Shown here: positions 23,063-26,639 of the stretch, in pieces
How the letters are laid out: each line of letters opens with the position of its first letter
Position numbering within the stretch: the first letter of the stretch is position 1
From: a virus
Taxonomy: Duplodnaviria > Heunggongvirae > Uroviricota > Caudoviricetes
Virus record (IMG/VR): IMGVR_UViG_3300028832_000003
Location: 1 to 64,000 of that record
Direction: 5' to 3' (one strand)
Length of the DNA: 64,000 bases
Position numbers and translations under genes: made by a program
The notes under the pieces: model-generated
What the model was told of the DNA's origin: nothing
The model's input: the letters and a program-made list of their open reading frames with translations, nothing else
Databases searched by the model: none

Positions 23063-24139
23063 ATGATTTTTAAACACGACAAAAAGAATAATTTTAAGGC
23101 AATTTTTAATCCTGATACTGGGTTCTACATGAGAAGTGGAGTACTTGATGAGAATGGCAAAGACACTGGAGTTGATCCGTTTATGACAGACTTCCCTGAA
23201 CTGTTCGACATTGGCATCATGCAGACATGCGTGTGTGCGCATAGATGTAATGTTGACTGCTATCAGAAAGCCATTGCGAGAACTGGAAACAACATGTCCG
23301 TTGAAGACTTGGAGTCTATTCTTAAACAGTTCAAAGGAAGGACTTTCCAGGTTGCACTCGGTGGTGCCGGAGATGTTGACACTCACGAAAATTTTGAGGA
23401 AATCCTTAAGCTGTGCCATAAATACAATGTCATTCCTAATTTTACCACTAGTGGAATTATGATGACAAAAGAAAAAGCAGAACTGTGTAAGAAGTATTGC
23501 GGTGCGGTAGCCGTATCTGAACACTTTGCAGACTATACCGACAAAGCATTGGATTTGCTTTTGGCTGCTGGAGTTAAGACTAGCATTCATTACGTGCTTG
23601 GTAAGAAGACCATTGACACTGCAATTGAGAGACTAAAAAATGACAGTTTTAAAGACGGTATCAATGCTGTAGTTTTTTTGCTTTATAAGCCTATCGGAAT
23701 TGCTACTGAAGAGTTTATGTTAACTCCAGATGACCCGAAGGTTAAAGATTTTTTTGAATTGATTGACACAAAAACTTTCCATCATAAGATTGGTTTTGAC
23801 AGTTGTTCCTGTGCTGGGATTGTAAACTTTACTAAAGGAATTAACCTTGAGAGTGTTGATTACTGCGAGGGTGGTCGTTTCTCTGCATACATTGATGCGA
23901 ATATGAACATGATGCCTTGCAGTTTTGCTAATCAAGATCCTAGTTGGCATATGAGTCTTAGAGAACACACGGTTGATGAAGTGTGGAACAGTGAGTTATT
24001 TGATAGATTTAGATATCCATTAAAACATTCATGCAGTAGCTGTCCTAATAGAGCAAGCTGCGGCGGTGGATGTCCCATTGTTAATCAAGTTACTTTATGT
24101 AACAGAAAGGAAAAGGAGTTTAAGCCTTATGAAATTTAG
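23063..24139 (+). CDS. radical-SAM-like enzyme with C-terminal SPASM/twitch domain
   Basis: Cluster motif IMQTCVCAHRCNVDCY is a non-canonical Cx3Cx3C or CxCx3C. Gly-rich LGGAGD (SAM site). C-terminal CSCAG...DYCEGG...MPCSF...HSCSSCPNRASCGGGCPIV (SPASM signature). AAGGAGAGAAAAATG start. Confidence 0.7.
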   Translation: MIFKHDKKNNFKAIFNPDTGFYMRSGVLDENGKDTGVDPFMTDFPELFDIGIMQTCVCAHRCNVDCYQKAIARTGNNMSVEDLESILKQFKGRTFQVALGGAGDVDTHENFEEILKLCHKYNVIPNFTTSGIMMTKEKAELCKKYCGAVAVSEHFADYTDKALDLLLAAGVKTSIHYVLGKKTIDTAIERLKNDSFKDGINAVVFLLYKPIGIATEEFMLTPDDPKVKDFFELIDTKTFHHKIGFDSCSCAGIVNFTKGINLESVDYCEGGRFSAYIDANMNMMPCSFANQDPSWHMSLREHTVDEVWNSELFDRFRYPLKHSCSSCPNRASCGGGCPIVNQVTLCNRKEKEFKPYEI

Positions 24140-24629
24140 AAATGATTTTGTGACTAACTCTTCATCCAGCAGCTTTATCATTAACAAGAAACATCTTAAT
24201 ATGGAAGAACTTGACCTTATTAGAAATTATGAAAGATATGCAAAATTCTTTTGTCCAGGTGATGAATGGGATATTGAAGAAAATGATAACTATATTTCTG
24301 GATATACAATAATTGATAATTTTGATTTTGAATATTATCTTACGGAGGAAATTGGCATTCCTGAAAATTATATTGATTGGAGTAGCCATAAGTTTTACGT
24401 TAATGATTATGATGAGAAAGAGAGAATTAAACAAAAAGAAGAATTTGATTTAAGAAACCAAAAAAGAACAGAAGAATTGAGCAAAGAGATCTGTGAGCAA
24501 ATAAAACACTGTATAGATTTTTGTAAGACTACAAAACCCATAGATAAGACAAGAGATGAAATACTTTATGAGGCGATTGAAGAAGTAGTTAATGGTTTGA
24601 TTGGAGGATATTTTATCAATGAAGATTAG
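24129..24629 (+). CDS. MKFRNDFVTNSSSSSF-family protein 1 (rSAM-associated paralogue)
   Basis: AAAGGAG RBS; N-terminus MKFRNDFVTNSSSSSFII; overlaps the end of the rSAM gene. Confidence 0.6.
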   Translation: MKFRNDFVTNSSSSSFIINKKHLNMEELDLIRNYERYAKFFCPGDEWDIEENDNYISGYTIIDNFDFEYYLTEEIGIPENYIDWSSHKFYVNDYDEKERIKQKEEFDLRNQKRTEELSKEICEQIKHCIDFCKTTKPIDKTRDEILYEAIEEVVNGLIGGYFINED

Positions 24630-25119
24630 AAATGATTTTGTGACTAACAGTAGTTCTAGTTCGTTCATCGTAGATAAAAACGATGTTTCATTTGGTAAGT
24701 TAATCAAGGCCGTACTTGAAATTGCCAACCGTGAATATGGCTATTATTATGATGAATGCGACGAGTTGGATAGATCACTCAAAAAGAAGAAGGTTTATAA
24801 AACTAAGCACATTGACTTCTGTGAAGAATATGGAGACGAGTGGTTGCACATTGCGAACAATTATTATATGAAACGTGCAACAAAAGACAATCCAATTTAT
24901 GTTAATACCATGTATGGTAATTACATGGGAGATGTTGATAAGGAATTAACCGAATGTGAATACAATAAAGAGGAAAAGCAGAAGATTAAAGATGGCATGG
25001 CGGTATATGATCACCACTATGTTATTGATAATCTCGGTAACATGAGGTATGACTGGAATCTTGTTGAAGATATTTTAAACAAACATAATATACCCTACAA
25101 AATAGGGTACTGTGATTAA
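24619..25119 (+). CDS. MKIRNDFVTNSSSSSF-family protein 2
   Basis: GGAGGA RBS; N-terminus MKIRNDFVTNSSSSSFIV. Confidence 0.6.
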   Translation: MKIRNDFVTNSSSSSFIVDKNDVSFGKLIKAVLEIANREYGYYYDECDELDRSLKKKKVYKTKHIDFCEEYGDEWLHIANNYYMKRATKDNPIYVNTMYGNYMGDVDKELTECEYNKEEKQKIKDGMAVYDHHYVIDNLGNMRYDWNLVEDILNKHNIPYKIGYCD

Positions 25120-25132
25120 AGAAAGGAAAATC

Positions 25133-25885
25133 ATGAAAATTAGAAACGACTTTGTAACAAACAGTTCATCAAGTTCTTTTATCATCGGAAGAAATGATGA
25201 AGATGACACCGTTCAGAGCGTGTATACAATCATCAGAGATTTGTTTAAAGAGTTCCATGTTCAGTGGGATAAGATGGCTGCTTATTACATCGAGAAAAAT
25301 AAGTTTAGGTTAGAGCATAACGATGAGTATGGATATTCGACGCTTGATAAAATCTGTAAAGAGTCCGGATGGGATCTTGACCTTCAGGCACAAGAGAAGT
25401 TTGATATAAGTCTGTATAGCTACAAGTATGATGATGAGTGGATGAAACTCACTACATACAAGGAGTATGAGCAGTACTGGATTGATAAAATGTCAAATGC
25501 GACAGATGATTGGAATCCACATGCTCCATTCACTATTTTTGATTTTTATAGTGGAACAAAACATGTCAATTTGCATGAAGGTAAGTGTAATCTAGACAAG
25601 GATTATGACAATGAGATTGACAGTTCGGCATCAATCCTTGGGTGGTATTATGCCGACATTAAAGAGGCATTTAAGGACGAGCCTTACGGTGAGGATATTT
25701 ACAGTAATCGTGGAGATTACGAGGCACTGAAGAGAAGGATTAAATACGAGAACATCCCCGAAGACCATGCATGCTTGTACTTGTTAGGAAGAGTATGTAT
25801 TAGTTCTGAGTGCGGTAACATTCCAGATTATGTTGTAGACAGACTTAAGCCATTGACGCAGTATTGTTGTAACCACATGGGTTAA
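25133..25885 (+). CDS. MKIRNDFVTNSSSSSF-family protein 3
   Basis: GAAAGGAAAATCATG; N-terminus MKIRNDFVTNSSSSSFII. Confidence 0.6.
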   Translation: MKIRNDFVTNSSSSSFIIGRNDEDDTVQSVYTIIRDLFKEFHVQWDKMAAYYIEKNKFRLEHNDEYGYSTLDKICKESGWDLDLQAQEKFDISLYSYKYDDEWMKLTTYKEYEQYWIDKMSNATDDWNPHAPFTIFDFYSGTKHVNLHEGKCNLDKDYDNEIDSSASILGWYYADIKEAFKDEPYGEDIYSNRGDYEALKRRIKYENIPEDHACLYLLGRVCISSECGNIPDYVVDRLKPLTQYCCNHMG

Positions 25886-25911
25886 TTTTATTACAAAGGA
25901 GATTATTACAG

Positions 25912-26196
25912 ATGACGGATTATTATTCCGAAAGTAACAAGTATAAGTTTATTATTACCAATAAGACTGACAGAAACATGACTAGCGAAGAGTTCGCAAA
26001 GGAATTGTTTTGGAAAGTTTTCCGGGATGCGAAGGATAAGTTCATCCTAACTCCAGGCAAGTCTATTCAGATTGAGTGTTCCGATGATTGGGAGAACTTA
26101 TTTGACACTTATATTGCAAAGAATTTTGATGATTGGGGAACTGGCGAGACATTTATCAGTGACTCAATTGCGATTAGAAAGTTCGAGGATAGATAA
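25912..26196 (+). CDS. hypothetical protein (no family motif)
   Basis: ORF track; RBS AAGGAGATTATTACAGATG. Confidence 0.5.
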   Translation: MTDYYSESNKYKFIITNKTDRNMTSEEFAKELFWKVFRDAKDKFILTPGKSIQIECSDDWENLFDTYIAKNFDDWGTGETFISDSIAIRKFEDR

Positions 26197-26639
26197 TGAA
26201 GATTAGAACAGATTTTGTAACGAATTCTAGTAGCAGCTCATTTGTTATTGCATATAAGAGATTTCAAGATTTTGATGAAGAAACTCTTACGAAATATCCG
26301 TTTCTCAAATGTTACTGGAGATTGGTTTCAGAAGCAATTTTCAGAGATTGGTATGGTGACACTACCAAAGGTAAAGAGGTTTTCTCTAAAAAACAATTAG
26401 ACAAGTATTATGAAGACCATTATATATGGGATGACGAAATGTCATTAAGAGAATTCTTTGATAAATATCCAGACGAAAGAGAAAGATATGATAATTTATT
26501 ATGGTATATAAATGCTGGATATAATCTAATATTCAAAGAAGTAGATTACTGTGATGACGATTGCAGAGAGATATTGCACATGCTTGAATCGTCTGGAAAA
26601 GATACAAACAGCTTTATTATTTTGGAGGAGGAGAAATGA
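26196..26639 (+). CDS. MKIRTDFVTNSSSSSF-family protein 4
   Basis: N-terminus MKIRTDFVTNSSSSSFVI; ATGA-type junction. Confidence 0.6.
   Translation: MKIRTDFVTNSSSSSFVIAYKRFQDFDEETLTKYPFLKCYWRLVSEAIFRDWYGDTTKGKEVFSKKQLDKYYEDHYIWDDEMSLREFFDKYPDERERYDNLLWYINAGYNLIFKEVDYCDDDCREILHMLESSGKDTNSFIILEEEK

Follow-up and report, generated by a model that had tools for sequence, protein, structure and literature searches.

The tailed-phage record IMGVR_UViG_3300028832_000003 (IMG/VR; Duplodnaviria; Heunggongvirae; Uroviricota; Caudoviricetes), of which positions 1 to 64,000 were analysed and are called the window here, carries at 23.0-26.7 kb a gene for a radical S-adenosylmethionine (rSAM) enzyme with a SPASM domain, followed by four open reading frames (ORFs), P1 to P4, whose proteins begin with nearly the same 18 residues and then diverge. 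This locus raises the question of what a single N-terminal sequence, referred to below as the tag, does on otherwise different proteins that are encoded next to such an enzyme. The tag and the enzyme gene were found side by side in phages, bacteria and archaea, with a tag variant that changes with the clade of the enzyme, and the pairing is probably an undescribed protein-modification system.

The tag and the proteins that carry it

The enzyme gene and the genes after it are packed into a tight operon on the + strand. The enzyme, a putative tag maturase of 358 aa defined by its ORF, by Pfam and NCBIfam hidden Markov models (HMMs) and by an AlphaFold (AF2) model, is encoded at 23063..24139, and two features back the start at 23063, the consensus MIxKxDKKNKF of the homologues and an AAGGAG ribosome-binding site. 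Its stop is overlapped by 11 nt by the start of P1 (24129..24629; 166 aa, isoelectric point (pI) 4.6, family 4; tag at 24129-24182), which is in turn overlapped by 11 nt by P2 (24619..25119; 166 aa, family 9, whose members end in GYCD; tag at 24619-24672). P3 follows (25133..25885; 250 aa, family 5; tag at 25133-25186), then ORF94 (25912..26196; 94 aa), an untagged protein assigned to family 7 by BLASTP, and then P4 (26196..26639; 147 aa, family 1; tag at 26196-26249), the start of which overlaps the ORF94 stop by 1 nt. All of these ORFs lie where an earlier reading, made from the letters and their translations without database searches (the sequence-only reading), had placed them, and an ortholog of P1 holds the same position in a distant contig (L001).

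All four tagged proteins open with MK[IF]R[NT]DFVTNSSSSSF[IV][IV], as that reading had noticed, and a degenerate DNA pattern of the tag gave 4 matches in the window against 0.00 expected from 100 shuffles. The broader consensus is M-K-x-R-x-D-[FY]-V-T-N-S-S-S-[ST]-S-[FY], 16 residues in length. Among 62 tags, which were not chosen by the DNA search pattern but were filtered at ≥10/18 identities to the consensus, N10 was present in 62/62, T9 and R4 in 60/62 each and S11-S13 in 60-61/62, and positions 14 and 15 accepted Thr, Ala and Cys. The serine run of P1-P4 was written with all six serine codons (TCT/TCA/TCC/TCG/AGC/AGT), including switches between TCN and AGY, and at identical tag residues 44-63% of codons differed synonymously between paralogues. 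This scatter of synonymous codons indicates that selection acts on the tag peptide and that neither recent duplication nor gene conversion accounts for the likeness, in agreement with the purifying selection proposed earlier. The tag contains no Glu and thus no [LI]-x-E prohead-protease site; it also has neither Pro nor Arg in the register of the sulfatase motif C/S-x-P/A-x-R, and no sulfatase gene was found nearby.

Beyond the tag the four window families were unrelated, with hhalign probabilities below 11% after removal of the first 18 residues, so that the C-terminal parts are fully divergent at the level of profiles, as had been claimed. Pfam, NCBIfam and PADLOC matched no family in the tagged proteins, PHROGs showed weak N-terminal similarity to phrog_7397 (function not assigned), and sequence searches of the PDB with P1, P2, P4 and a P3 profile gave nothing significant. 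The tag itself is covered by no curated Pfam, NCBIfam or PADLOC family and in PHROGs by 'unknown' entries only, and searches of the literature for the motif or for this set of genes yielded nothing relevant, the sole string match being human PAF15; the earlier statement that no described family starts with this motif holds for these sources. For P3, 219 full-length homologues were found at ~40% identity, with conserved motifs over the whole length and an invariant CNHMG at the C-terminal end. The P3 model was confident (predicted local distance difference test (pLDDT) 89) apart from residues 1-10, which scored below 50, a distribution that fits a free recognition peptide; no fold match to the model was found in the PDB or BFVD.

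The radical-SAM/SPASM enzyme

The 358-aa protein scored 29.8 bits against the Pfam SPASM model PF13186 (cutoff 21.5) and 34.5 bits against TIGR04085 (cutoff 27), and passed PF04055 marginally (29.8 bits, cutoff 29.5). Together with a structure model that resembles the anaerobic sulfatase maturase anSME, these matches bear out the rSAM/SPASM identity that had been proposed from the sequence alone. The eight SPASM cysteines (C248, C268, C286, C324-x2-C327-x5-C333-x3-C337 and C346; 23804..24100, + strand) were all invariant in a 37-sequence alignment, and the enzyme belongs to the SPASM class, whose members modify proteins or peptides, with a complete domain for two auxiliary clusters. Every NCBIfam equivalog model scored far under its cutoff, including the anaerobic sulfatase maturase model TIGR03942 (10.1, cutoff 349) and the glycyl-radical activase model TIGR02494 (17.6, cutoff 174), which places the protein outside both the sulfatase maturases and the NrdG-type activases as these models define them.

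The unusual Fe-S motif TCVCAHRCNVDC and the terminal CGGGCP, to which the sequence-only reading had drawn attention, are both present. The SAM-cluster cysteines C56-x-C58-x3-C62-x3-C66, followed by YQ (23228..23260, + strand), are invariant in close homologues and depart from the canonical CX3CX2C of the radical SAM superfamily. Relatives of the enzyme show CX7CX6C, CX7CX8C or CX5CX6C spacing, and the canonical CX3CX2C, followed by Y-R, was found only in a distant cellular clade with members in, for example, Sporomusa and Arenibacter. Since these distant relatives carry CX3CX2C, the family began canonical and the loop was then lengthened with three cysteines retained; because the three cysteines are always retained, a SAM cluster is still plausible in the non-canonical enzymes.

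The AF2 model of the enzyme had a pLDDT of 88, and its closest fold in the PDB was anSMEcpe (4K37; Foldseek E 8e-11, TM score 0.60), with further matches to SuiB, CteB, PqqE, TigE and SkfB. The model also aligned with viperin, MoaA and BtrN and showed the partial TIM-barrel fold; a profile of the enzyme family run against PDB sequences gave nothing significant. More than 3,900 homologues were found, those listed being 51-84% identical, and the N-terminus of the enzyme is a conserved beta-rich extension of 46 residues and three strands. Some close homologues measure 400-428 aa (among P0237, P0255, P0258, P0261, P0264, P0280-P0282 and P0288), and one of 621 aa carries GIY-YIG and NUMOD3 domains, which indicates a homing-endonuclease or intron-type insertion in this gene in some phages.

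Tag and enzyme in phages, bacteria and archaea

The tag was found in 15,217 protein clusters when a 46-residue N-terminal profile was run in an exhaustive HMM search (E ≤ 0.001; clusters being 50%-identity representatives). Of these 15,217 clusters the best 150 were, with few exceptions, matched from residue 1 onwards, and family 1, the type of P4, was the commonest among these 150. In a word-indexed protein search the 46-aa profile of the tag gave 49 short fragments only, a result that carries little information on breadth. When the search began from the enzyme, 14/15 IMG/VR loci had 1-6 tagged ORFs directly downstream; when it began from the DNA pattern of the tag, at least 119 viral stretches were found, and among the matches listed the enzyme lay on the same strand in 44 of the 50 viral loci that had ≥3 kb of upstream sequence, with up to seven tagged genes per enzyme. 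A tag-pattern scan of species-representative genomes gave at least 120 stretches, and an rSAM homologue was adjacent in 95 of the 120 bacterial and archaeal loci among the matches listed. These loci came mostly from metagenome-assembled genomes of Bacillota, with isolates that include Sporomusa, Arenibacter, Flavonifractor, Lacrimispora and the archaeon Methanoculleus. The system had been presented at first as a phage trait, and the presence of tag and enzyme in bacterial and archaeal genomes corrects that view. As in systems for RiPPs (peptides that are made on the ribosome and modified after translation), an enzyme gene adjoins genes with a shared recognition sequence.

Which variant of the tag is present depends on the clade of the enzyme. 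Position 14 was Thr in 15/15 tags beside CX3CX2C enzymes, where the tag genes lie upstream of the enzyme, and Ser in 110/110 tags of the window enzyme clade; the CX7CX6C clade had 237 Ser and 6 Thr at this position. Searches of cultured phages (INPHARED; blastn and tblastn) did not find the system, the only hits there being 27%-identical rSAM genes of T4-like Pseudotevenvirus and Slopekvirus with CX7CX2C spacing and no tagged neighbours. This rSAM homologue (phrog_7293) occurs in Citrobacter phage Miller (L260 3932-5086) and in 167 other records, mostly of T4-like enterobacterial phages, and it shares the N-terminal extension of the cassette enzyme. At the CX7CX6C-clade loci L032 5852-7145, L047 7039-8332, L053 5969-7265 and L090 6444-7740, two ORFs stand between the rSAM gene and the tags, one of 183 aa that is LemA-like by eye and one for a membrane protein of ~255-275 aa. 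This insert is missing from the window and from most loci, and an accessory role for the LemA/TPM-like genes was dropped, the insertions being sporadic.

The 266 distinct tagged ORFs drawn from loci L001-L139 and the window had a median length of 143 aa and a median pI of 4.6, and after removal of the tag they fell into at least 38 BLAST families. The cargo is by far the faster-evolving part: between the same pairs of loci it was 23-42% identical, and the enzyme 50-74%. Conserved C-terminal motifs (RFSHH, ESHH, CNHMG, GYCD, GAGRDG and KFDYHY) were seen in otherwise unrelated tagged families, with example members at L001 7494-7991 and L020 8253, and a second terminal feature, placed close to the N-terminal strand of the fold, may be common to some of these families. 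Head-to-tail Cys cross-linking was considered and dropped, as C-terminal cysteines occur in some families only, and pyruvoyl or Ntn-type self-processing at Asn-Ser was dropped as well, the cargo being too diverse for one enzyme type.

ORF94, which the sequence-only reading had set apart as an ORF without the motif, proved to be homologous to the tagged family 7 (BLASTP E 2.5e-22), with a decayed tag that reads M---TDYYSESNKYKF where family 7 has MKYRKDFVTNSSSSSF. The same untagged sub-lineage of family 7 was found in another phage (L006 7879-8166), beside a tagged copy. Within the sub-lineage M[TN]DYYSES[NK]K[YH]K replaces the tag, and the C-terminal ESHH of the family is lost. As a family 7 member keeps the fold-forming sequence after loss of the tag, the tag appears to be a separable module that is dispensable for the fold. 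The untagged sub-lineage may represent a naturally occurring control that lacks the tag; alternatively, its protein may evade the enzyme or compete with it.

Tagged proteins in cellular genomes carry two HIRAN domains, BspA-type leucine-rich repeats (LRRs; LRR_5) or a TIR domain, and some exceed 1,800 aa; RefSeq and UniProt label every tagged protein 'hypothetical'. In other cellular proteins a transmembrane or lipobox-like hydrophobic segment comes immediately after the tag. In bacterial proteins at L143 and L230 (residues 1-35) and at L174 and L203 (residues 1-45) this hydrophobic segment has a lipobox-like (ILASC) or AxA-like site, and the tag stands in for the n-region of a signal peptide. 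The recurring operon of the CX3CX2C clade, as at L193 1266-5796 (Arenibacter), L151 2537-7172 (Methanoculleus) and L158 55-4281 (Sporomusa), runs from a gene for a large protein over a small ORF and a tagged gene (product of 122-140 aa, with NSSSTSF) to the rSAM gene. A fifth gene, for a protein of ~305 aa, was present in five examined loci (L149, L158, L192, L198 and L258, the last with 280 aa), and the two ~305-aa proteins that were scanned had a C-terminal PF21648 match, one above and one just under the Pfam threshold. The large protein of Arenibacter matched the Avs2 model NF041813 (E 1e-20) and is named a NACHT-domain protein in UniRef, and that of Methanoculleus gave a weak NACHT match. 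Operon copies that are ≥90% identical are common to Arenibacter, Cellulophaga and Catalinimonas, and such near-identical copies in different genera suggest that the operon is mobile. It looks like an undescribed mobile defence-type system.

The role of the tag and its relation to known systems

The best explanation for the tag is, at slightly better than even confidence, that one maturase modifies it on diverse proteins. The sequence-only reading had already likened the locus to an rSAM maturase with whole-protein substrates; that reading is now strongly favoured by synteny in both the viral and the cellular loci and by clade covariation, and the modification itself is predicted. The occurrence of one tag on at least 38 unrelated families and on HIRAN, LRR_5 and TIR proteins fits the logic of one maturase with many substrates. 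On each protein encoded with it, the enzyme would recognise the tag as a free, flexible N-terminus and would carry out a radical-initiated modification inside the near-invariant core T9-N10-S11-S12-S13. The likeliest step would be abstraction of a hydrogen from serine, which is the most economical guess, since anSME, its nearest relative by structure, acts on whole proteins by oxidising a Ser or Cys; this could yield formylglycine or, within the same molecule, a cross-link to an aromatic residue next to the serine run. A single enzyme would in this way mature a battery of unrelated small, acidic, fast-evolving phage proteins, and these properties of the cargo, with its place in an early/replication module, suggest that it presumably consists of host-takeover or counter-defence effectors.

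A broader and more tentative proposal, to which we give rather less than even weight, is that tag and enzyme form a new protein-tagging system that spans the domains of life and serves both parties to the virus-host conflict, in which the TNSSS 'Ser-box' would be turned into a reactive or cross-linked cap that activates, stabilises or directs effectors. The cellular cargo of such a tagging system could be partners of NACHT/Avs-type NTPases and TIR, HIRAN and LRR proteins, and the cargo in large phages of anaerobes could be the small, acidic, fast-evolving effectors of each battery, up to seven in number.

Several observations weigh against modification of the tag by one maturase. That the tag is the substrate is inferred rather than directly observed, and the chemistry and biological role are inferred with it. 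The PF04055 score exceeds its cutoff by 0.3 bits only, and, given this marginal score and the non-canonical cluster motif, catalysis in the window enzyme clade could be altered or lost. With Pfam and NCBIfam the enzyme gave no hit to a leader-binding domain of the RRE/PqqD type (RRE, RiPP recognition element). Residues 13-18 of the tag form the first beta-strand of the P3 model, so that the tag is partly structural, and the untagged family 7 sub-lineage persists within the cassette. Finally, in some cellular proteins the tag precedes a signal-peptide- or lipobox-like hydrophobic stretch, and a role in sorting or regulation would fit such an arrangement as well.

The same synteny and covariation would be expected if the tag were a docking peptide that recruits interchangeable adaptor or specificity proteins to an rSAM hub acting on another target, an alternative that we regard as unlikely yet the most serious of those considered. 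Docking might occur, for example, by beta-strand addition to the conserved 46-residue, three-strand extension of the enzyme, and the target might be a host protein, a nucleic acid or a small molecule bound by the variable domain; HIRAN and LRR cargo are indeed ligand- or target-binding modules. Most phage cargo, however, is tiny and acidic and has no recognisable binding domain, and docking peptides seldom need a near-invariant Thr-Asn-Ser-Ser-Ser across archaea, bacteria and phages. To our knowledge, the SPASM enzymes characterised to date have as their target the very peptide or protein that is linked to them, and this established behaviour, taken with the fold matches of the window enzyme, favours modification over docking.

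Less probable still is that the tag is the first strand or loop of one ancient, divergent domain, for instance a phosphate- or metal-binding one, with the rSAM gene as a chance neighbour. The strand formed by residues 13-18 of P3, the size of the tag family and the short C-terminal endings SHH, NHMG and NH of several families are what such a domain might show. The sequence-only reading had allowed that the motif might turn out to be an ordinary widespread domain start, and it is very widespread, but it heads many unrelated folds rather than one domain: hhalign detected no homology past the tag among the window families, the tagged proteins range from 90 to more than 1,800 residues and bear TIR, HIRAN, LRR or transmembrane segments, the family 7 sub-lineage retains its remainder without the tag, and residues 1-10 are unpacked in the P3 model.

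T4 internal proteins are several unrelated small proteins with an identical, decapeptide-like N-terminal capsid-targeting sequence (CTS), and the likeness of the window proteins to them had led the sequence-only reading to offer a capsid-targeting or ejection signal, which would leave the rSAM gene an unrelated neighbour. We now consider this very improbable. In Sporomusa, Arenibacter and Methanoculleus, tag and enzyme are encoded in chromosomal operons that are not those of phages, beside NACHT/Avs-like NTPases, the cargo includes TIR, HIRAN, LRR and membrane proteins, and the system was not found among the cultured phages of INPHARED. Unlike a CTS, the tag has no prohead-protease site and is linked to an rSAM gene rather than to head or protease genes, the window structural genes lying ~20 kb away on the other strand. 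Similarly improbable is a role of the enzyme in nucleotide or DNA metabolism, as an NrdD activase or in DNA hypermodification with the tagged genes as unrelated 'morons': the cassette does lie within a replication module (DnaE, methyltransferases, and NrdD without an obvious NrdG), and homing-endonuclease insertions such as those in some enzyme homologues are often found in essential phage genes, but the full SPASM domain and anSME-like fold differ from NrdG, the glycyl-radical activase HMMs scored far under their cutoffs, and the linkage of enzyme and tag holds in genomes without such neighbours.

The surrounding window is part of a large phage of an anaerobe, with a source record of ~152 kb. 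Besides the cassette it encodes a split DnaE, DNA methyltransferases, an RNA ligase, NrdD and an integrase, and the virion genes run on the opposite strand from ~42 kb. The apparently split DnaE (18018-22627) consists of a PHP plus pol3-alpha ORF (~445 aa) and a separate pol3 finger ORF (683-709 aa), with a 296-aa ORF of unassigned function (19456-20346) between the parts. An NrdD-like anaerobic ribonucleotide reductase (36700-38895; phrog_487, E 8e-222) has no obvious NrdG adjoining it and is followed downstream by a 196-aa ORF (39312-39902) that is dUTPase-like by eye. A tyrosine-type integrase (40074-41393, + strand) lies near the strand switch at ~41-42 kb, a transposase (55705-56826, - strand; phrog_506, E 6e-128), which may be TnpB-like, lies among the virion genes, and two phage tRNA genes, tRNA-Ile(TAT) and tRNA-Gln(TTG), were located at 9968-10042 and 11895-11967.

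Among known systems, anSME/AtsB (4K37) gave the best structural match. anSME proteins measure ~360-370 aa, have two auxiliary clusters and no RRE, and target a Ser or Cys that lies close to the N-terminus in whole proteins rather than in short peptides; size, cluster number and lack of an RRE are common to anSME and the cassette enzyme, whereas sequence identity is 16-17%, the tag lacks C/S-x-P/A-x-R, sulfatase neighbours are absent and the cluster spacing of the cassette enzyme is non-canonical. QhpD is an rSAM/SPASM enzyme that modifies a protein subunit, QhpC, of quinohemoprotein amine dehydrogenase; it resembles the cassette enzyme in acting on a protein rather than a peptide and has weak HMM similarity to the enzyme family, but it serves a single dedicated substrate, forms Cys-Asp/Glu thioethers and has no tag shared by unrelated proteins. 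With the RiPP maturases of the rSAM/SPASM type (SuiB, CteB, PqqE, MftC) the cassette shares the position of the enzyme beside presumed substrates that combine a conserved recognition sequence with a hypervariable remainder, and with the prochlorosins it shares the use of several substrates per enzyme. It differs from RiPP systems in that the 'cores' are folded proteins rather than short precursors, of 90-250 aa in phage (94-250 aa for the linked proteins here) and up to more than 1,800 aa in bacteria, in that the conserved segment of only ~16 residues forms the very N-terminus and is probably the place of modification itself, and in the lack of an RRE, leader protease and exporter. The FxSxx-COOH system (FxsA/FxsB) pairs a variable protein bearing a short C-terminal motif with a dedicated rSAM-SPASM gene in STAND-type NTPase operons and includes a peptidase (Kaur et al. 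2020, PMC7159879). The cellular members of the tag family likewise adjoin NACHT/Avs2-like NTPases; the motif of the cassette differs in sequence and in being N-terminal, and it occurs in multi-gene batteries in phages. Among rSAM/SPASM maturase systems the cassette is unusual in its presumed whole-protein substrates, its 16-residue tag, its multi-substrate phage batteries, its non-canonical cluster spacing and its conflict contexts.

If the tag is modified, it would define a large class of ribosomally made, rSAM-modified whole proteins in a field that has so far dealt mostly with short peptides and a few dedicated proteins. The variable cysteine spacing bears on how far the canonical CX3CX2C can change, and the 16-residue tag with its enzyme might serve as a portable tool. 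The tag would also provide a shared handle for thousands of 'hypothetical' phage and bacterial proteins (at least 15,000 clusters) and, given the NACHT, TIR and HIRAN contexts, would point to a post-translational layer in the conflict between phages and their hosts.

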